IMG/VR virus record: IMGVR_UViG_3300022187_000019 | Direction: 5' to 3' (one strand) | DNA length: 24,949 nt | DNA from: a virus | Taxonomy: Duplodnaviria > Heunggongvirae > Uroviricota > Caudoviricetes | In this document: positions 2,378 to 24,949 of the stretch, piece by piece | Numbering within the stretch: the stretch's first letter is position 1 | Layout: each line of letters opens with the position of its first letter | Position numbers and translations under genes: made by a program | Notes under the pieces: model-generated | What the model was told of the DNA's origin: nothing | The model's input: the letters and a program-made list of their open reading frames with translations, nothing else | The model's database searches: none

Positions 2378-2853
2378 TCGTCGTCGCCTGTGTCATCATC
2401 GTCCCGGCCGTCATCCATCGATTCCGGGATGCGGCGACGCAGGAAGCGCTCCAGTTCTTCGAACACTTCGACCAGCGAGACGAAATTATAGACGCCGCTG
2501 TCCTCATTGTTCACCAGTTCCACGGCGATCGCTCGCTCGTAGATGTCGAACTCACCGTCATCGTGGAGGACGATCAACGGCTCGTTGTCCGCCTCCTCCG
2601 TGATTTCGACGCTGGTGTAGAGGAACGCGGTGCCGTCGTTCTCATCGACCAGTTCGAGATCGTAGTCGGTGTTGAGATAGTCGATGACTTCGATCATGGT
2701 CGCCGAGCCGAGATAGGCCGAGCTACCCTTGATGTAGTCGAGGTCGCCTGCGAAGGCGATTTCCCAATCACCATTGTCGTAGAAGACAAAGGCCGGGGTT
2801 CCCGGAGAGTCCCGATCGGGGACCTCCGTGTCGAGGAACAGCAATGTGGACAT
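2374..2853 (-). CDS. Hypothetical acidic protein with an internal repeat
   Basis: Coupled start/stop. PAFVFYDNGDWEI and PLIVLHDDGEFDI are repeats. Confidence 0.75.
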   Translation of the reverse strand: MSTLLFLDTEVPDRDSPGTPAFVFYDNGDWEIAFAGDLDYIKGSSAYLGSATMIEVIDYLNTDYDLELVDENDGTAFLYTSVEITEEADNEPLIVLHDDGEFDIYERAIAVELVNNEDSGVYNFVSLVEVFEELERFLRRRIPESMDDGRDDDDTGDDE

Positions 2854-2878
2854 TCAGATGCTTTCGATTAGCGGGGCA

Positions 2879-3061
2879 TCAACCGACCGGGCTTTCAGCC
2901 ATGCCGATCATATTCCGTCCTGCTGCATCGAAGGAGGCGAAAGGCCCCTTCAATGCGCCGCCGGCCGGGTGGCGGTAGAACCAGTTGCCCCGCTCTTTGT
3001 TGAACTGGTCGCCGCTGTGGAAGGGAACCCCGATGGGGAAGTGAAGCTGGGGCGGCTCCAT
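2879..3061 (-). CDS. Possible small hypothetical protein
   Basis: Fills the gap in the operon; start is uncertain. Confidence 0.4.
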   Translation of the reverse strand: MEPPQLHFPIGVPFHSGDQFNKERGNWFYRHPAGGALKGPFASFDAAGRNMIGMAESPVG

Positions 3062-18499: not shown

Positions 18500-18722
18500 C
18501 ACACCGCAGCGATGCGGAACGCTCCAAGATTTACCGAGGGGCAGACTCAGCCGGAGTCACTTTGCGGACAAGTAGTGTCGAACTTGGACATGAACGAAAG
18601 CACTGGCCGGTCTGGTATGGATACGCTCCGAGTAAAGGGCGGGTAGAACGGAGGAAGCTCCGAGATCGCCGGCCCCTAATCGGGAGGCCATCCCAGCGCA
18701 AGTGAGGCTGTCACGCGGTAAG
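18500..18722 (+). ncRNA. Unidentified structured RNA (~220 nt)
   Basis: Own promoter, no SD-led ORF, many hairpins including GNRA loops. Confidence 0.55.
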
Positions 18723-18749
18723 TTTTGGATTGCCTCTTGCAATTATGAC

Positions 18750-18778
18750 TTGACATTGCTCGAATCAGTTGTTAGAGG
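18750..18778 (+). promoter_or_regulatory. Promoter for the large ncRNA
   Basis: TTGACA-N17-TAGAGG. Confidence 0.72.
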
Positions 18779-18784
18779 CTCAGG

Positions 18785-19628
18785 AACACCCCGCTTGAGG
18801 GGGATAGCGTTGGGTAACCAACGTAAAGGAGGTATGGCCACATAACTCCGCCGGCTTGCCGGTCAATTCAAGCAAGTGCAGTCAGGTCCGCGAGGATCGC
18901 TTCTGGTAACGGGAGCTAGGCTGTTAGCAGGACAAGGCCCTTGAGGGGATAGAGGAGAGCCAGATCGGTGACCTCGAACGCCGGAGTAGAACCCGGAGCT
19001 TGTGTCTAACCTGCGGCAGCGGATGATAAAGCACAAGGTCATCAGTTCAAGACTTAGCGGTCAAGAGCAATGATCAGTTTGGTAGGGTGAAGGTCCTGCT
19101 CGACGGTCTTGGTAGTGTTTAGCGACATGACGGACATGAGGCGACTAGCATTCCGCAGGTGGAAACATCAGTGGAACTAGGAGGTAGCTCGTCTCGGTGG
19201 CTTGCAAACTTAGCTTAGTGGTAAAGCAACGGACTCTTAATCCGTGGATCGCTGGTTCGAACCCAGCAGTTCATATCAAAACGCAAAGATTGCTTCGACT
19301 GTATGTGAAAGACGCCTAATACCGCAGGGTTCGCCCAATGCGGTCTGCTCCTAGCCGGCAAAGCGAAGAGTGGTTGGTGAAAGAAAGTTCGTTGCCCCGT
19401 CGCGGGGGCTTAATGGCGGTAACACGTCAACGGTCTGGGAATCGCCGAATATCATGCAGTGTCGCCGCTAATGCCAGCGGCCCCGTGAGAATCGGGAAAA
19501 ATAGGCGGCGTTGATCTGGGACCGGGCTACTCGCAAGAGGGCTTGGTGGATAAGGTGGCAAGGTGCCTCGCAAGGGTTCCGTAATCCTCCGAACGACAGA
19601 TCGCAACGGGTGTAGTCTCAGCCTGTCT
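18785..19628 (+). ncRNA. GOLLD-like giant ncRNA (~840 nt)
   Basis: ORF-free, next to tRNAs, GNRA-rich. The 3' half has TAATACCGCAGGGTTCG...CCTAG...AAAG..GAGTGGTTGG..AGAAAGTTCG and ends GGGTGTAGTCTCAGCC, which I recall as GOLLD consensus blocks (not searched). Confidence 0.72.
19204..19278 (+). tRNA. tRNA-Lys(CTT)-like element embedded in the GOLLD RNA; broken acceptor stem, no CCA
   Basis: D arm GCTT/AAGC, anticodon arm ACGGA-CTCTTAA-TCCGT, T arm GCTGG-TTCGAAC-CCAGC. The acceptor stem has two mismatches near its end. Confidence 0.8.
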
Positions 19629-19640
19629 ATATTCATCACC

Positions 19641-19790
19641 GTGGTTGGTTGGTCAGGTCTGCGGACCTGTCTTCTGGATTGGTGCCAGCAAGCCGACCAC
19701 AATTTCACTCGCTTTGTAGATGCTGAGCCGTTGACCGACGGAACTACCCGACATGCGACCTAACCCGCGTATTCGCGAGGTTCAGTGTCT
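19641..19790 (+). ncRNA. Two small three-way-junction structures 3' of GOLLD
   Basis: GTGGTTGGTT/AGCCGACCAC closes two hairpins; CTGAG/TTCAG closes two more. Confidence 0.4.
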
Positions 19791-19813
19791 TCATAGCCAG
19801 TGTAATTTTTCTC

Positions 19814-19842
19814 TTGACATCCAGTCAAGTTTCAATTATCAT
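19814..19842 (+). promoter_or_regulatory. Promoter of tRNA operon 1
   Basis: TTGACA-N17-TATCAT; CTTGAC-N5-GTCAAG palindrome. Confidence 0.8.
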
Positions 19843-19891
19843 TCGGACTTCAACAGCGGTTCTCCGCTTTTCAGGATTTCACGAGCTTCCC

Positions 19892-19984
19892 ATGCGCAAC
19901 ATTCCCGCCATCAACATGATCGCAGCGCCGGCCAATATGGTCCCGGCCGTGATTGCGTGCGCGCTCCCGACGAAGGACGACTGA
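19892..19984 (+). CDS. Putative 30-aa attenuator leader peptide of tRNA operon 1
   Basis: MRNIPAINMIAAPANMVPAVIACALPTKDD*. Codons 3-22 encode only N/I/P/A/M/V. Confidence 0.72.
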   Translation: MRNIPAINMIAAPANMVPAVIACALPTKDD

Positions 19985-20016
19985 CCCGGTCGTCTCGTCT
20001 CATAAGGGATTTTTCG

Positions 20017-20048
20017 AAAGGGTCGCGAAAGCGGCCCTTTTTCGTTTC
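20017..20048 (+). terminator. Intrinsic terminator (attenuator) between the leader and the first tRNA
   Basis: AAAGGGTCGC-GAAA-GCGGCCCTTT followed by TTCGTTTC. Confidence 0.85.
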
Positions 20049-20123
20049 TCGGTGTAGCTCAGTTGGTAGAGCGCCTGCTTTGGGAGCAGGAAGTCGTCGG
20101 TTCGATCCCGGCCACCTTGACCA
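20048..20123 (+). tRNA. tRNA-Pro(TGG)
   Basis: Cloverleaf, loop TTTGGGA, encoded CCA, two acceptor-stem mismatches. Confidence 0.9.
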
Positions 20124-20129
20124 TTTCAT

Positions 20130-20206
20130 CTAGCTGTAGCGCAGTCTGGTAGCGTGTGCCCCTCGGACGGGTGAGGTCGCAGGTTCAAATCCTGCCAGCT
20201 AGACCA
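20130..20206 (+). tRNA. tRNA-Pro(CGG)
   Basis: Cloverleaf, loop CTCGGAC (A37), C1:G72, CCA. Confidence 0.88.
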
Positions 20207-20213
20207 GTTTCAT

Positions 20214-20284
20214 AGCAGTGGATCAGTTCGGGGCGGGCCTCATAAGCCTGCTACCCAGAGGCGCACATCCTCTCACTGCTACCA
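20214..20284 (+). tRNA. Atypical tRNA-Met(CAT)
   Basis: AGCAGTG/CACTGCT acceptor, loop CTCATAA, CCA. D arm is degenerate and the T loop is CGCACAT. Confidence 0.7.
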
Positions 20285-20294
20285 GTTTCAACAT

Positions 20295-20369
20295 GCTCGA
20301 TTAGCTTAATGGTAGAGCGCTGGTTTCACATGCCGGAGGCCGGAGGATCAGTCCCTCCATCGAGCACCA
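20295..20369 (+). tRNA. tRNA-Val(CAC)
   Basis: Cloverleaf, loop TTCACAT, T loop ATCAGTC, CCA. Confidence 0.85.
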
Positions 20370-20378
20370 ACCGAATAT

Positions 20379-20454
20379 GCTTCGTTAGCTCAGTTGGTAG
20401 AGCATCCGTATGACATGCGGAAGGCCGTAGGGTCAGGACCTACACGAAGCACCA
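20379..20454 (+). tRNA. tRNA-Val(GAC)
   Basis: Cloverleaf, loop ATGACAT, T loop GTCAGGA, CCA. Confidence 0.85.
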
Positions 20455-20458
20455 GTTT

Positions 20459-20560
20459 TGGGTCTGCTCGGGACAACATTGGCGAGCAGAGGCAACCGGG
20501 AGATAACCTTGACCCTTACGCACGCTTCGGCGGCGGAGTAGGGAACCTTCCGACCCTCAG
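20459..20560 (+). ncRNA. Unidentified ~100-nt structured non-tRNA element inside the tRNA array
   Basis: GGGTC/GACCC closing stem, TCTGCTCG/CGAGCAGA hairpin, and a UUCG-capped hairpin. Confidence 0.5.
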
Positions 20561-20566
20561 ATTTAT

Positions 20567-20642
20567 GGGGCAGTAGCTCACTTGGGAGAGCGTCGGCTTT
20601 GCACCCCGGAGGTAGAGGGTTCGATCCCCTCCTGTTCCACCA
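20567..20642 (+). tRNA. tRNA-Ala(TGC)
   Basis: G3:U70, loop TTTGCAC, CCA. Confidence 0.92.
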
Positions 20643-20649
20643 GTTTCAT

Positions 20650-20727
20650 TGGCGTATAGTCTTCTAGGTGAAGGCGCTCGGCTGTTAACCGAGATTGAGG
20701 CTGGTTCGAATCCAGCTACGCCAGCCA
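20650..20727 (+). tRNA. tRNA-Asn(GTT)
   Basis: Cloverleaf, loop CTGTTAA, G73, CCA. Confidence 0.92.
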
Positions 20728-20736
20728 TTTGGTTGA

Positions 20737-20810
20737 TGTTCTGTAGCACAACGGTAGTGCATCCGACTGATAATCGGCAGATGGAAGTTCGATTCTTCCC
20801 AGAACAACCA
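20737..20810 (+). tRNA. tRNA-Ile(GAT)
   Basis: Cloverleaf, loop CTGATAA, CCA. Confidence 0.92.
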
Positions 20811-20820
20811 TACCCTTCCA

Positions 20821-20863
20821 TGTGCCGCGAGCCTCTTTGAGGTTTCGCGGCACAGTCATTTTT
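20821..20863 (+). terminator. Terminator ending tRNA operon 1
   Basis: TGTGCCGCGA...TCGCGGCACA hairpin with a T-rich tail. Confidence 0.7.
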
Positions 20864-20865
20864 AC

Positions 20866-20893
20866 TTGACATTATGCGTCTCTAAAGTATCAG
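20866..20893 (+). promoter_or_regulatory. Promoter of the lipoprotein-GSP cassette
   Basis: TTGACA-N16-TATCAG. Confidence 0.6.
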
Positions 20894-20924
20894 CGATTCA
20901 CTCACAATTTCAGAGGGAATCACT

Positions 20925-21314
20925 ATGCGGAAGAAGTCTTTTCTGCTGACCACCACGCTGGCAGCAGCGTTGGCGGTAAGCGCCTGTGGCCGCCCGGCCA
21001 ACCAGTGGGACGAGTCCTACAACGTCTATTCCGACCGCAACACGGCGGTCTGCACCGACAAGAACAAGCGCCGCGTGCCTGACAGCTATTGCCAGCAGAA
21101 CCGTGGCGGCGGAGCCGGCAACGCCTTCATGTGGTATTACCTCGGCAAGTCGGCCGCAGTCCCCTATCACGGCGATCCGGTGCGTGGCGGCAGCTTCGCT
21201 CGCACGCCCGGTGCCACCTACTTCCACGCCCCGGCTTCCTCGTCCGTGACCCGTGCGGCGGCTGTCTCGCGCGGCGGCTTCGGTAAGTCGGCATTCGGGA
21301 GTGTCGGCGGTTGA
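20925..21314 (+). CDS. Lipoprotein, DUF1190/YgiB-YjfM-like
   Basis: Signal peptide with a VSAC lipobox; SRGGFG C-terminal motif; directly upstream of a GSP synthase-like gene. Confidence 0.78.
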   Translation: MRKKSFLLTTTLAAALAVSACGRPANQWDESYNVYSDRNTAVCTDKNKRRVPDSYCQQNRGGGAGNAFMWYYLGKSAAVPYHGDPVRGGSFARTPGATYFHAPASSSVTRAAAVSRGGFGKSAFGSVGG

Positions 21315-22460
21315 TCCGTAAGCAGGTCGCCCAGCGCCTCAACTGGCAGCAGGCCGTCGCCGATGACGGACTGATCTGGCACACCGACGGCGTCGATCCC
21401 TACTGGCGGGAGGGAACCTATTATTCCTTCGCGCCGGGCGAGATCGACCTGTTCGATGAGGCCACCCGCAGCGTCTACAACCTCCTGCTTGCAGCCGGCG
21501 ATGTCATCGTCGGGGACAAGAGCGGGGAATGGCTGACGAAGATGGGCATCCCGCAGAAGGCGCACGCCGCCATCCGCCGGGCGTGGGATCAGGAACCCCC
21601 CTGCCCTCAACTACGGCCGGTTCGACTTCGGTTATGACGGCCGGACCGAACCCAAGATGTTCGAGTTCAATTGCGACACCCCGACCTCGCTGCTGGAAGC
21701 CTCGGTGATCCAGTGGCGCTGGAAGGAGCAGGTCTTCCCGGACCTCGACCAGTTCAACTCCATCCACGAGCATCTGGTCACCAAGTGGGCGGACATCCGC
21801 CCCTTCCTCCCCAACGGCGAAATGCACTTCACGCATTTCTTCGACGATGCCGGTGAAGACACCGTGACGACCGCCTATCTGCGGGACACCGCAGCAGCCG
21901 GCGGTATCGGCTCGAAGGTCATCCTCATCGAAGACATCGGTCTGTCGGCTGATGGGCGCTTCGTTGATTTGGACGAAGAGGTCATCACGACCCTGTTCAA
22001 ACTCTACCCGTGGGAATGGCTGGTCAACGAGGACTACGCCGACGCCGTGTTCAACAGCGTCGATACGATGGTCTGGCTGGAGCCGATCTGGAAGATGATG
22101 TGGAGCAACAAGGGCATCCTGCCCCTGCTCTCCAAGCTCGATCCCGGCAACCCCTTCCTGCTCCACAGCAGCTTCGAGAAGCCGGCGACCGGCTCCTATG
22201 TCAAGAAGCCGCTGCTGGCTCGTGAGGGAGCCAACATCGAGATCGTGGATCGTGATGTGCTGGCGGCCACCGGCGGCGACTACGGCGAGGAAGGGCACGT
22301 CTATCAGGAGATGTATCGTCTCCCGGAAACCGCGCCCGGCGTCTTCCCGGTGATCGGTAGCTGGATCGTTGATGGCGAGCCGTGCGGTATCGGCATCCGC
22401 GAGGACGGCCTCATCACGAGCAACACGGCAAAGTTCGTGCCGCATGTGATCGGGGGCTGA
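21311..22460 (+). pseudogene. Glutathionylspermidine synthase-like ATP-grasp protein (YgiC/YjfC family), split by a +1 frameshift at C6 21596-21601
   Basis: Removing one C gives ...QEPPALNYGRFDFGYDG...EFNCDTPTSLLE..., then KLYPWEW, WSNKGILPLL, VKKPLLAREGANI and IGSWIV...GIRED. Confidence 0.88.
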
Positions 22461-22464
22461 CGCG

Positions 22465-22722
22465 ATGGCCCCCGTCTCGCCCGCCTCCATCGCCGGCCGC
22501 CTCAAGCGCAGCCAAATTTCGACGGTTATCAACCTCGACGAGAACTTCTGCATCCTCGGGTGCAGCGAGTCTTGTGCGATCCGGTTGACCAAGGACACGC
22601 TGCGGCGGCCGGCGCTCGTCGAGGAGGGGCCTCGCAGCGATAACGGCTATCGGACCTTCCGCCTTTCGGTGGTGGGTCAGTCCGTCCAGAAAATCCTTCT
22701 CAGCGAGCGAGGTTTGGGATGA
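22465..22722 (+). CDS. Hypothetical protein
   Basis: Operonic position; ATGA coupling to the channel gene. Confidence 0.6.
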   Translation: MAPVSPASIAGRLKRSQISTVINLDENFCILGCSESCAIRLTKDTLRRPALVEEGPRSDNGYRTFRLSVVGQSVQKILLSERGLG

Positions 22723-23099
22723 GAAAGATAGTCCACCTCCTCGGCCGGAGCTTCCTGACCGTCGCGATCGTCTACGGCATTGTCGTGGTCCTCGCCGCCG
22801 GGCTGTTTGATCTGGCCGAAGCCAAATATGGGATTGGCGATTCCTTGTGGTGGGCCTTCACCACCGCGACCACGACAGGATACGGCGATATGTATCCCGT
22901 CACGGTGGTCGGCCGAGGGGTGGCTATCTTCCTCATGCACTTCGGGCCGGGCTTCGCCTTTCCCGTGATGACGGCAATCATGTCGGCCAAGCTGATCGTG
23001 GATAGTGATGCGTTCACCCATGCTGAGCAGGAGCAGATCAAGAACGACCTCGCGGCGATCCGCGAGATGCTGCATCGTCAGCAGGACGATAGAAAGTGA
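22719..23099 (+). CDS. Minimal two-TM potassium channel (KcsA/Kcv-like)
   Basis: TM1, pore helix SLWWAFTTA, filter TTTGYGD, TM2, C-terminal coiled coil. Confidence 0.92.
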   Translation: MRKIVHLLGRSFLTVAIVYGIVVVLAAGLFDLAEAKYGIGDSLWWAFTTATTTGYGDMYPVTVVGRGVAIFLMHFGPGFAFPVMTAIMSAKLIVDSDAFTHAEQEQIKNDLAAIREMLHRQQDDRK

Positions 23100-23617
23100 G
23101 CGTGATGGATTTGTTCTGTTCGACCTGCGGGACGGCTCATGTGGATCACGAGTATCCCATGAAGTGCCCCGGCTGCTCGGCGATGACGTGGGGAAGTCCC
23201 ACCGGTGTCGTCGTCGTTCTCCAGCGGGTTCGCGTCGGCATCGGCCGGCGCGGTCTTCTCATGGCCCGGCGGGCGATCGAGCCTCACCGTGGCGGCTGGG
23301 CGTTCTTGGGCGGGCATGTCAATCGCGGTGAGTCCTTCGAACAAGCCGCTTGTCGTGAGTGGCTGGAAGAGACCGGCCGGACCATAACCGCCGACAGCCT
23401 CGAATATGTGCAGAGCTATCCGGTAGCGGGCGGCGCGCAGACGATGGCGGTATTCCGTAACCCATGGGTGCTGACCGCCGGGCACTATGAGCGGCTTCGG
23501 CTGTGCCCGGAGAACATGGAGTTCGGCCTCCTCACTGAGTATGAGCAGGTCGCTGATCTGTGCTTTCCCACGCACCGCGAGATCGCGGAGCAATGCTTCA
23601 ACGACTGCTGGTTCTGA
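23096..23617 (+). CDS. Zinc-ribbon NUDIX hydrolase
   Basis: CSTC...CPGC; NUDIX box GHVNRGESFEQAACREWLEETG. Confidence 0.9.
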   Translation: MSVMDLFCSTCGTAHVDHEYPMKCPGCSAMTWGSPTGVVVVLQRVRVGIGRRGLLMARRAIEPHRGGWAFLGGHVNRGESFEQAACREWLEETGRTITADSLEYVQSYPVAGGAQTMAVFRNPWVLTAGHYERLRLCPENMEFGLLTEYEQVADLCFPTHREIAEQCFNDCWF

Positions 23618-23657
23618 CCGGGCCGGAAAAAAAAGTTCGCCTTTCTGAATTTTCTTG

Positions 23658-23686
23658 TTGACAGCCAGACTGTCGCTGTGTATAGT
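23658..23686 (+). promoter_or_regulatory. Promoter of tRNA operon 2
   Basis: TTGACA-N17-TATAGT. Confidence 0.85.
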
Positions 23687-23736
23687 TCGGCTTCATTCAC
23701 GGCAATTATGCCTCACAGGATTTTTTGAGACCTACC

Positions 23737-23799
23737 ATGGAACGCTTCGGATTCAAACGAGATCGCCGGGAACGCGGCGAACGAGGTTTTAGCCTCTAA
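23737..23799 (+). CDS. Putative 20-aa leader peptide of tRNA operon 2
   Basis: MERFGFKRDRRERGERGFSL*. The upstream module is paralogous to that of leader 1. Confidence 0.65.
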   Translation: MERFGFKRDRRERGERGFSL

Positions 23800-23835
23800 T
23801 CCGGTAGTGCTCCTAGCTATCGGTGCTGTTTTAGC

Positions 23836-23911
23836 GGATCGATAGCTCAGTAGGTAGAGCGGCGGATTCTTACTCCGCAGGTGCTGGGTTCAAGCCCCAG
23901 TCGATCCTCCA
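23836..23911 (+). tRNA. tRNA-Lys(CTT)
   Basis: Cloverleaf, loop TTCTTAC, unusual U73, CCA. Confidence 0.88.
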
Positions 23912-23930
23912 AATCAGCATCGATATTTAG

Positions 23931-23964
23931 ACGCCCTACCGCCCCCGGTGGGGCGTTTTTCGTT
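23931..23964 (+). terminator. Intrinsic terminator after the first tRNA of operon 2
   Basis: ACGCCCTACCG-CCCC-CGGTGGGGCGT followed by TTTTCGTT. Confidence 0.75.
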
Positions 23965-23977
23965 GTTCCCGGTCTTT

Positions 23978-24053
23978 GGACCGGTAGCTCAATTGGCAGA
24001 GCAGTGGGCTTTTAACCCGAAGGTTGTGGGATCGTGGCCCACCCGGTTCACCA
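23978..24053 (+). tRNA. tRNA-Lys(TTT)
   Basis: Loop CTTTTAA, atypical T loop ATCGTGG, CCA. Confidence 0.87.
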
Positions 24054-24070
24054 AACACAAAGGAGACAGC

Positions 24071-24457
24071 TTGGCTTGGGATGATGAGGCGAAACGTGCC
24101 TATGCGAAAAACTACTATGCCGAGAACGGTGCCAAGATGCGGAAAGTCACCGCTGAGGCGCAAGCTCTTCGTAGGCAGTTAGCGCAAGAATACGTTATCG
24201 ACTATCTCAGCAAGCACCCGTGCATAGACTGTGGGGAAGATGACATAATCGTCCTTGAGTTTGATCATGTCGATCGGGCCACCAAGGAGTTCAATGTCTC
24301 TAAGGCAGTCAGAGACGGAACAAAGTTACCTCGACTGATCGAGGAGATCAATAAGTGTGTCGTCCGGTGCGCGAACTGTCACCGCCGGAAGACATACGCG
24401 GAAATGGGTTACACCAGCCGATTGTATCCTCATCAGAAAAGGCAAATGCAGGTATAG
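24071..24457 (+). CDS. Free-standing HNH endonuclease
   Basis: AGGAG SD with TTG start; CIDC...LEFDH...CANCHRRK; lower GC than its neighbours. Confidence 0.88.
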   Translation: MAWDDEAKRAYAKNYYAENGAKMRKVTAEAQALRRQLAQEYVIDYLSKHPCIDCGEDDIIVLEFDHVDRATKEFNVSKAVRDGTKLPRLIEEINKCVVRCANCHRRKTYAEMGYTSRLYPHQKRQMQV

Positions 24458-24522
24458 CTCAGTAGGAAGAGCACTGGTCTGCCAGTCCAGAGACACGGGT
24501 TCGAACCCCGTTGCCCGCTCCA
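24448..24522 (+). tRNA. tRNA-Gly(GCC)
   Basis: Loop CTGCCAG, U73, CCA; overlaps the HNH stop codon. Confidence 0.88.
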
Positions 24523-24535
24523 GTTTTTATGCAAT

Positions 24536-24612
24536 GCAGGCGTAGCTCAGCGGTAGAGCGGGAGGTTTCCACCCTCCGGCAGCGCGAGTTCGATCCTCGC
24601 CGTCTGCTCCAG
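24536..24612 (+). tRNA. tRNA-Gly (CCC-type) with an 8-nt anticodon loop
   Basis: GGAGG-TTTCCCAC-CCTCC; U73; CCA. Confidence 0.82.
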
Positions 24613-24618
24613 CATATG

Positions 24619-24693
24619 GGAACGTAGCTCAGTTGGTAGAGCACCGGATTGTCTATCTGGTTGTCGCGGGTTCGAACCCCGTCGTTCTCGCCA
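24619..24693 (+). tRNA. tRNA-Asp(GTC)
   Basis: Loop TTGTCTA, G73, CCA. Confidence 0.92.
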
Positions 24694-24700
24694 TTTCCAT

Positions 24701-24775
24701 GGCGCATTCGTCTAGCGGACAGGACACGGGCTTCTCAAGCCTGAGACGGGGGTTCGATTCCCCCATGCGCTACCA
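24701..24775 (+). tRNA. tRNA-Glu(CTC)
   Basis: Loop TTCTCAA, CCA. Confidence 0.92.
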
Positions 24776-24776
24776 T

Positions 24777-24854
24777 CTCGCCGTCTTCTAAATGGCCTAA
24801 GAACCTTGCCTTTCAAGCAGGTCAATGCGGGTTCGAATCCCGTCGGCGAGACCA
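24777..24854 (+). tRNA. tRNA-Glu(TTC)
   Basis: Loop CTTTCAA, CCA. Confidence 0.92.
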
Positions 24855-24862
24855 GTTTCAAT

Positions 24863-24943
24863 GCCGCTGTAACCCCCTCCGCTACGAACGGAGAGAAAGG
24901 TAACTGGATGCAAATGCAGGTTCGAATCCTGTCAGCGGCTCCA
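24863..24943 (+). tRNA. D-armless tRNA-Arg(ACG)-like RNA with a 22-nt variable region
   Basis: GCCGCTG/CAGCGGC acceptor, 7-nt linker, CTCCG-CTACGAA-CGGAG, canonical T arm, CCA. Confidence 0.75.
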
Positions 24944-24949
24944 CCCTCT

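Follow-up and report, generated by a model that had tools for sequence, protein, structure and literature searches.

How would a large phage control the transfer RNA (tRNA) genes that it carries, and why would one of its tRNA operons begin with a short open reading frame (ORF) and hold a terminator after the first tRNA gene? Genes for tRNAs are common in large phages and their role is debated, i.e., whether they serve codon matching or make up for host tRNAs removed by shut-off or by anticodon-nuclease defences; to our knowledge, how they are regulated is essentially unknown. The question is raised by the 3′ end of a 24,949-nucleotide (nt) stretch of a Caudoviricetes virus, IMG/VR record IMGVR_UViG_3300022187_000019 (the whole stretch is hereafter "the window"). 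There, a 20-codon ORF, leader 2, is followed by a tRNA-Lys(CUU) gene, an intrinsic terminator, and a block of further tRNA genes, running past the window end, for Lys, Gly, Asp, Glu, Arg, and Phe. A terminator placed after the first tRNA is atypical for a leader-peptide attenuator. On balance we favor, with reasonable rather than strong confidence, the reading that leader 2 is a ribosome-mediated transcription attenuator for this Lys/Gly/Asp/Glu/Arg/Phe tRNA block that would sense decoding speed. What the sequences show is a conserved ORF, a match between its codons and the tRNAs, four covarying helices, and an antiterminator strand (S1) at the stop codon.

A phage genome of 151,382 bp and 60% G+C contains the window. 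Among cultured phages, those nearest to it are Lacusarx, from Sphingobium, and two that infect Erythrobacter, XM05 and vB_EliS-L02; it is a Lacusarx-like phage, and its host group is the sphingomonads. The genome holds a single array of 28 tRNA genes, 15 of them within the window (ARAGORN). Homologues of the leader 2 locus were collected through blastn and three pattern scans; matches in the latter were mostly due to chance, and loci were retained only if a neighboring tRNA or motif was also there. The resulting set includes 11 distinct sequences and 1 partial sequence, from Lacusarx, the two Erythrobacter phages, and uncultured contigs.

The locus opens with a sigma-70-type promoter (Table 1) whose -35/-10 pair is in the same position in 11/11 homologues, and a scan for strong + strand promoters from this promoter at 23658 to the window end returned no further one. 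In the 5′ untranslated region (UTR), the position of a hairpin is kept in relatives while its sequence varies (GAGGC/GCCTC, GCGGG/CCCGC, GGGACA/TGTCCC, AAGCC/GGCTT, and others); L047, alone among them, has no such UTR and is almost leaderless. The composite module of promoter, TCGG(A)CTTCA, hairpin, and CAGGATTT occurs exactly twice in the 151-kb genome, at leader 2 and, from 19814, at another ORF, leader 1. This bears out the initial annotation, made from the letters of the window, which had described leader 2 as a second leader ORF with the promoter and 5′-UTR design of leader 1; the promoter, UTR, ORF, pairing strands, and terminator after the first tRNA-Lys that it had listed are all where it had placed them.

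Leader 2 is intact in the 11 distinct homologues, each with an in-frame ATG, 18-21 codons, and a TAA or TAG stop, and no leader coding sequence is given across these regions in the fetched feature tables of Lacusarx, XM05, and vB_EliS-L02. The peptide core K(R/Q)DRR(E/R)G(D/E/G or absent)ERGF (one-letter code) is kept, and the N-terminal 4-6 codons vary freely. Indels inside the ORF are all multiples of 3, with adjoining loops differing by 1-3 nt. As their final two codons, three phages have AGC CTC and eight have ACC TCG: both amino acids change, through a compensated shift that leaves the hairpin arm CCTC, the stop position, and the ORF length unchanged. Since 8/11 homologues have ACC TCG and keep CCTC, the final codons appear to preserve an arm of hairpin H0 rather than the amino acids Ser and Leu. 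H0 itself shows no covariation, hence its pairing is unproven.

The codons of leader 2 match the tRNA genes behind it. Overall, 14 of the 19 non-start codons specify E, R, G, K, or D, and the core is limited to K/R/D/E/G/F, which are the six amino acids of the following 10 tRNAs in each relative. With the amino acid frequencies of the phage, the probability that 12/12 core residues fall within these six is 5e-6, and leader 2 contains the longest K/R/D/E/G/F-only run of the genome in all six frames (17 residues). The tRNA order behind the leader is constant in relatives: Lys(ctt), terminator, Lys(ttt), Gly, Gly, Asp, Glu, Glu, Arg(acg), sometimes Arg(ccg), Phe, and Arg(tct). In the phage studied here, 18/19 codons are decodable by tRNAs encoded 3′ of the terminator (background 57.5%, p=4e-4) and 0/19 by those of operon 1, so that the match put forward in the initial annotation holds, for an ORF now seen to be conserved in 11 homologues. 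Beyond the window, ARAGORN calls two more members of the block, Phe(GAA) and Arg(UCU): tRNA-Phe(gaa), predicted in that annotation to lie beyond the window, starts 3 nt past its end, and is followed by Arg(tct), Ser(cga), and Leu x3. The same prediction fared less well for other tRNAs. A possible tRNA-Arg(CCG) is missing from this genome and present in five relatives, and the Ser and Leu tRNAs that were to be announced by the two terminal codons belong to a third promoter and leader unit rather than to operon 2.

The invariant core includes the rare codons AAA (11% of Lys codons), CGA (11% of Arg codons; used twice), and TTT (8% of Phe codons). The leader Lys codon is AAA in 11/11, which is read by the Lys(UUU) encoded beyond the terminator and not by the embedded Lys(CUU); the latter reads AAG, i.e., 89% of Lys codons in phage genes. 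Only 16 nt, too few to accommodate a promoter, separate the T tract of the terminator from the next tRNA, and because there is no promoter between the two, the rest of the block depends on read-through.

The proposed gating would involve five strands (S1-S5). S1 (CCGGTAGTGC) starts 0-2 nt past the stop codon in 11/11, and S2 is made up of GCTATCGG and TGCTGTTTT; next come tRNA-Lys(CUU), at the same position in all homologues, its 3′ trailer S3, and the terminator arms S4 and S5. In the terminator scan, the terminator appears as a 13-pair hairpin with TTTTT behind it; it is present in 11/11, with 97% of alignment cells paired and 2 compensatory pairs. For the local S1:S2 hairpin, 98.7% of cells are paired and a single pair is compensatory. 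S2 and S3 pair over 13 bp, in continuation of the acceptor stem of tRNA-Lys(CUU), with 7 pairs changed on both sides (compensatory versions include TGCTG/CAGCA, TGTCG/CGACA, TGTTG/CAACA, TGATG/CATCA, and GATCTG/CAGATC) and a duplex energy of -18.3 kcal/mol for cognate versus -11.0 kcal/mol for non-cognate strands. S1 and S4 form 7+3 pairs flanking one constant U-C mismatch, paired in 99% of cells and compensatory at three positions: U-A takes the place of C-G in four phages, and G-C that of A-U in L009 and of C-G in L047. Since S4 is shared by S1:S4 and the terminator, two mutually exclusive folds result. The read-through fold (S1:S4 plus S2:S3) has 93.6% of cells paired and 10 pairs changed on both sides, and the terminator fold (S1:S2 hairpin plus S4:S5) has 97.9% and 3, respectively. 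The score of the read-through fold was reached by 0/500 shuffles, and controls in which the partner was slid along were 32-54% paired; the 11 sequences share kinship, however, and shuffle-based p-values overstate their independence.

The initial annotation had let CTATCGG (23817-23823, in S2) pair either with CCGGTAG (23801-23807, in S1) or with the 5′ end of the tRNA. The first pairing stands, and the second can form (9 bp; cognate -15.5 versus non-cognate -13.6, p=0.002), is broken in one lineage, and represents a possible transient; the best-supported alternative partner is instead the tRNA 3′ trailer, which makes the switch larger than had been proposed. A trp-like 1:2 helix between the variable N-terminal codons and S1, suggested by RNAfold in several sequences, was rejected as not specific (cognate -11.7 versus non-cognate -10.7 kcal/mol). 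No anti-antiterminator strand comparable to trp segment 1 was found inside the ORF; S2, which sequesters S1, lies downstream of S1. Within 23801-23990, words resembling CCGGTAG recur in S1, at the 5′ end of tRNA-Lys(CUU) (TCGATAG in the window), in S5, and at the 5′ end of tRNA-Lys(UUU), with the complement in S2 and S4, which suggests that the switch strands may have arisen by duplication of tRNA-Lys end sequences.

How these helices would succeed each other was evaluated from minimum-energy folds of the growing transcript. In 11/11, S1:S2 forms first, S2:S3 replaces it after the trailer emerges, and S1:S4 appears upon the emergence of S4, ahead of S5. With no ribosome, or with a ribosome in the core, S1:S4 is part of the minimum-energy fold once S4 is out in 11/11 (8-9 pairs with the ribosome in the core). 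When S1 is masked as by a ribosome on the stop codon, S1:S4 falls to 0-2 pairs and the terminator forms, again in 11/11 (constrained folds).

We thus hypothesize the following course of events. Transcription from the host-type promoter at 23658 would yield an RNA carrying the 20-codon translated ORF, S1, S2, tRNA-Lys(CUU), S3, and the strong S4/S5 terminator. S1 would pair with S2 first as the RNA elongates; S3 would then capture S2 in the 13-bp helix that lengthens the acceptor stem, which would place S1 beside S4. S1:S4 would be made before S5, no terminator would form, and the polymerase would continue into Lys(UUU), Gly, Gly, Asp, Glu, Glu, Arg, Phe, and Arg. If the leader is decoded fast, a ribosome on the stop codon would hide S1, S4 would pair with S5, and transcription would stop after tRNA-Lys(CUU). 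If the K/R/D/E/G/F codons are decoded slowly, including the rare A/U-ending AAA, CGA, and UUU that the gated tRNAs serve, the ribosome would stay upstream, S1 would remain free, and the block would be transcribed. The embedded tRNA and its flanking helix would juxtapose S1 and S4 and give the ribosome the time of ~130-150 nt of transcription to read the leader. The net effect would be negative feedback on tRNA supply, with the six-amino-acid block probably made only under slow reading of the leader codons. That an S1 after the stop codon pairs with the 5′ arm of the terminator would also explain why the terminator is placed beyond the first tRNA.

Table 1. Coordinates of leader 2, its proposed RNA switch, the genes that it would gate, and leader 3. 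Positions are those of the window unless another sequence is named.
Feature	Position	Strand	Description
Sigma-70-type promoter	TTGACA 23658-23663; TATAGT 23681-23686	+	17-nt spacer; 11/12 in consensus scan
5′ UTR	23687-23736	+	TCGGCTTCA 23687-23695; hairpin GGCA/TGCC 23700-23711; CAGGATTT 23716-23723; GAG; ATG
Leader ORF 2	23737-23799	+	20 codons plus TAA (23797-23799); product MERFGFKRDRRERGERGFSL
Leader 2 conserved core	23755-23790	+	AAA CGA GAT CGC CGG GAA CGC GGC GAA CGA GGT TTT
Hairpin H0	23783-23796	+	GAGG, TTTTAG, CCTC at the 3′ end of the ORF; arms invariant in 11/11
S1, antiterminator strand	23801-23811	+	CCGGTAGTGCT; begins 1 nt after the stop codon
S2	23816-23832	+	GCTATCGGTGCTGTTTT; partners: S1 (local hairpin), tRNA trailer S3, or tRNA 5′ end
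tRNA-Lys(CUU)	23836-23911	+	ARAGORN; Rfam 66 bits; embedded in the switch 5′ of the terminator
S3, 3′ trailer strand	23911-23924	+	AAATCAGCATCGAT; leader-trailer helix with S2
Intrinsic terminator	23929-23960	+	S4, 5′ arm, ~23931-23941 (holds CCCTACCG); loop CCCC; S5 23946-23956; T tract; 23929-23958 in the terminator scan
Predicted gated genes in the window	23978-24940	+	Lys(UUU), HNH ORF, Gly(GCC), Gly(UCC), Asp, Glu(CUC), Glu(UUC), atypical Arg(ACG); ARAGORN, Rfam for Arg, PHROG for HNH
HNH endonuclease ORF	24071-24457	+	PHROG 2255, 2e-26; between tRNA-Lys(UUU) and tRNA-Gly(GCC)
Leader 3	G000:C1 ~64012-64128	-	194-310 nt past the window end; 26-codon ORF MFTTTALHQLTLTQLHWQSQYCSSSL
Leader 3 homologues	L002:7305-7412; L003:7515-7630; L077 ~2800-2913		leader 3 is conserved in Lacusarx, vB_EliS-L02, and an uncultured contig

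Leader 2 is one of three such ORFs in the array. Leader 1 (core MNNPAPAIMVPAV, MNNPAPAIMVP(A/V); window 19814-20047) is conserved in eight sequences (homologues L001, L003, L019, L032, L037, L146, and L158) and precedes tRNAs for Pro, Pro, Val, Ile, Ala, and Asn, plus Met in several relatives. It contains the longest N/I/P/A/M/V-only run of the genome, 20 residues, which is also the sole run ≥12 in six frames. Its stop codon lies inside a covarying hairpin in 8/8 (GACGAC/GTCGTC, GAGACT/AGTCTC, AGGTC/GACCT, GTGGC/GCCAC), and a strong terminator stands immediately 5′ of tRNA-Pro. No conserved antiterminator was found for leader 1, constrained folds of which always retained the terminator, and pairing of the hairpin loop with the 5′ arm of the terminator was ruled out in L037 and L146, where the loop consists of the stop codon only. 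The inclusion of Met in block 1 rests on the tRNA-Met(cat) called by ARAGORN in relatives. At the same place in the window, within the Pro(cgg)-Val(cac) interval, is a tRNA-sized element (20213-20289) with an acceptor-like stem of 7 bp, ACCA at its end, and a 7-nt loop that contains CAT; a tRNA-Met had been annotated at ~20213-20289, and it is called by neither ARAGORN nor the Rfam tRNA model, even with E up to 10. Lacusarx lacks leader 1, with a long structured-looking RNA between promoter and tRNA-Pro(cgg) instead.

Leader 3 follows the layout of the leader 2 unit, i.e., ORF, post-stop hairpin, tRNA, and terminator. Its promoter (TTGACA, 17 nt, TATACT) lies ~190 nt beyond the window end, and its ATG is exactly 7 nt past the -10 box in 4/4 homologues, a leaderless messenger RNA (mRNA) design. 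The ORF is rich in T/L/H/Q/W/S/C/Y codons and is followed by a hairpin with the conserved loop CTGACGCG, tRNA-Ser(cga), a terminator whose 5′ arm contains GCGTCA(G/T) (GCGTCAG here), and tRNAs for Leu x3, Thr, His, Gln x2, Ser, Cys, and Trp. Across four phages, the composition of leader 3 is constant and its residue order shuffled, which argues that selection may act on the codon set rather than on the peptide sequence. Overall, the three leaders split the 20 amino acids into N/I/P/A/M/V, K/R/D/E/G/F, and T/L/H/Q/W/S/C/Y, a division that parallels the three tRNA blocks: 61/73 leader residues fall within their own block, a value matched by 0/200,000 random amino acid partitions (maximum 54). 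A broader proposal, which is plausible but which we advance tentatively, is that of a three-channel demand sensor, in which three leaders share the 20 amino acids and each would gate its own block. The first tRNA of units 2 and 3 would serve as scaffold and as delay line for a race between ribosome and polymerase. A block would be induced when the host pool falls, including when tRNAs such as those for Lys, Arg, Glu, or Asp are cut by an anticodon nuclease of the host or by a defence that depletes tRNAs, and the array might then act as an inducible counter-defence.

Several points, besides the shared kinship mentioned above, weigh against leader 2 being an attenuator of this kind. Leader translation, termination at the hairpin, and the sign and kinetics of control are all things that we infer. 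The Shine-Dalgarno sequence is weak or distant, with AGGA ~17-20 nt and GAG ~10-13 nt 5′ of the ATG. At full-length equilibrium, only 5/11 sequences fold into the antiterminated form and 6/11, including the window, into the terminator; given this mostly terminated equilibrium, the model depends on co-transcriptional order. The S1:S4 helix of the window is moreover the weakest of the set (6+2 bp, -12 kcal/mol), a ribosome would have to hold the stop codon for ~130-150 nt of transcription after S1 synthesis, and the conserved S1:S2 hairpin has a role that the simple model leaves unexplained. The codon match is also imperfect: CGG has no cognate phage tRNA in the window genome, ACC, TAC, and AAC are present in the variable N-terminal parts of relatives' leaders, and ARAGORN calls an Ile tRNA inside the block in EliS-L02. 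Finally, the nucleotide conservation of the core, third positions included, could partly stem from two invariant hairpins, CGCC/GGCG and GAGG/CCTC, rather than from codon choice.

A rival explanation has the same parts and a different logic, in which translation would be needed for read-through: a ribosome at the stop codon would melt S1:S2 and free S2 for S3, and its release would free S1 for S4. An untranslated or stalled leader would then keep S1:S2 and lead to termination, and the block would be made when translation runs well (feed-forward) or only in a timing window. S1:S2 is indeed conserved, has one compensatory pair, and is the earliest structure in 11/11, and it is not essential to the simple attenuator model; moreover, such a hairpin with a U-rich stretch behind it (TGCTGTTTT, which the scan lists as terminator-like) could pause the polymerase to await the ribosome. 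We nonetheless consider this alternative unlikely, because S3 has an 8-9 nt single-stranded toehold on S2, S2:S3 is much more stable than S1:S2 (-18.3 versus -13.8 kcal/mol), and the growing-chain folds displace S1:S2 without a ribosome in 11/11. Positive feedback on tRNA supply would moreover be of no obvious benefit, and rare codons read by the gated tRNAs would stay unexplained.

The helices could instead act after transcription. S1:S4 and S2:S3 would then be a stem for pre-tRNA processing or stability, of the ribosomal RNA (rRNA) leader-trailer/RNase III type, the terminator would be constitutive and leaky, and the ORF would have another role, e.g., as a micropeptide or in mRNA stabilization. 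The long helix is the full-length minimum-energy fold in 5/11 and so could form after release; it adjoins the acceptor stem and takes in the A of CCA, and the order of the core peptide is strongly conserved. What this account leaves unexplained is why S1 is found 0-2 nt after the stop in 11/11, why three leaders partition the amino acids by tRNA block, and why leader 3 keeps composition and not order; ~10 tRNAs here, and >20 in the array, would hinge on leakage past a terminator of -15 to -29 kcal/mol. We regard it as rather improbable. Still further from what we expect is an untranslated ORF, i.e., an RNA-only switch or direct tRNA sensor (T-box-like) whose open frame is a by-product of RNA constraints, which we think very improbable. 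The weak ribosome-binding site, the highly conserved synonymous sites, and the two invariant hairpins within the ORF would fit such a sensor, but several observations speak against it: indels preserve the frame at several sites, a compensated double indel at the final two codons holds the stop in place, and in-frame ATGs are retained despite a divergent N-terminal region. In addition, leader 3 shows leaderless-mRNA spacing (7 nt from -10 box to ATG) in 4/4, and neither a T-box nor another Rfam leader family was detected in the region.

Other features of the array were noted around the proposed attenuator. An HNH ORF within the gated block, for which a Pfam search gave no match, looks like a homing endonuclease moving within the tRNA array; from its position it would be transcribed only upon attenuator read-through. 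The insertion is missing at the same site in relatives, and Lacusarx has a similar HNH just 5′ of leader 3. Between the T tract of the terminator and tRNA-Lys(UUU), at 23961-23977, is a short conserved box, TTCTCGGC in most relatives and TTCCCGGT in the window. Rfam adds two elements to those called by ARAGORN in the window, an atypical Arg(ACG) at 24863-24940 and a GOLLD-like RNA at 19138-19624. The Arg(ACG) scores 32.8 bits with the Rfam tRNA model and receives no ARAGORN call; its acceptor stem, T arm, and anticodon arm (ACG) are good, but a D-arm-like segment (GGTAACTGGATGC) is found 3′ of the anticodon arm and not 5′, and relatives carry a normal Arg(ACG) in its position. The GOLLD-like RNA (RF02032) scores 140 bits, slightly below the gathering score of 150, and a tRNA-Lys(ctt) at 19203-19277 is embedded in it; a lone tRNA-Lys(ctt) 5′ of block 1 is also found in XM05 and L032.

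Attenuators of amino acid operons include trpL, hisL, leuL, pheL, and thrL, along with the multivalent ilvGMEDA and ilvBN leaders. Leader 2 resembles them in having a short leader rich in codons that report on supply, and in a terminator and an antiterminator that share a strand; ribosome position selects the fold in those operons and is predicted to do so here. Rare synonymous codons are also used in leuL, and several amino acids are likewise sensed together by the thr and ilv leaders. The differences are as marked. Leader 2 would gate tRNAs and not enzymes, so that the loop closes on tRNA supply, and it would sense six amino acids together, with three leaders spanning 20. Its antiterminator strand comes after the stop codon, with the competitor S2 downstream rather than within the ORF, and a whole tRNA gene separates that strand from the terminator. 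Absence of translation is predicted to give read-through, and not super-attenuation. Closest in what it controls is the E. coli pheST attenuator, which also acts on a component of the translation machinery rather than on a biosynthetic pathway; it differs in that it precedes a protein gene, senses one amino acid, and has the classical 1:2/2:3/3:4 layout.

Two further systems share parts of the design. T-box riboswitches likewise couple tRNA status to terminator read-through ahead of translation-related genes, but they bind uncharged tRNA directly, via a specifier codon and the T-box sequence, and involve no ORF, whereas leader 2 has a conserved one; a cmscan search of 18500-24949 against Rfam with E up to 1 returned no T-box, riboswitch, or amino acid leader family at the leaders. 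The leader-trailer stems of rRNA operons, which are RNase III substrates, are likewise long helices made from the flanks of a stable RNA, as S2:S3 and S1:S4 are around tRNA-Lys(CUU), but here one strand of the helix doubles as a terminator 5′ arm, and the other is directly next to a stop codon. We know of no described attenuator with gated tRNAs, a six-amino-acid leader, three leaders for twenty amino acids, or a built-in tRNA gene. Such control of tRNA genes was described neither in the Lacusarx paper nor in the results of full-text literature searches on Lacusarx and on leader peptides, attenuators, or small ORFs in connection with tRNA genes and operons.

The locus appears well suited to testing, since a cassette of just 300 nt contains four covarying helices along with a defined antiterminator strand beside a stop codon. 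The array would offer three parallel channels with non-overlapping amino acid sets, in a group with the cultured relatives Lacusarx, vB_EliS-L02, and XM05, and small unannotated ORFs within tRNA arrays merit annotation. If the proposed attenuation is true, these phages would exert direct feedback on decoding capacity, and textbook attenuation would be extended from amino acid biosynthesis to tRNA supply.

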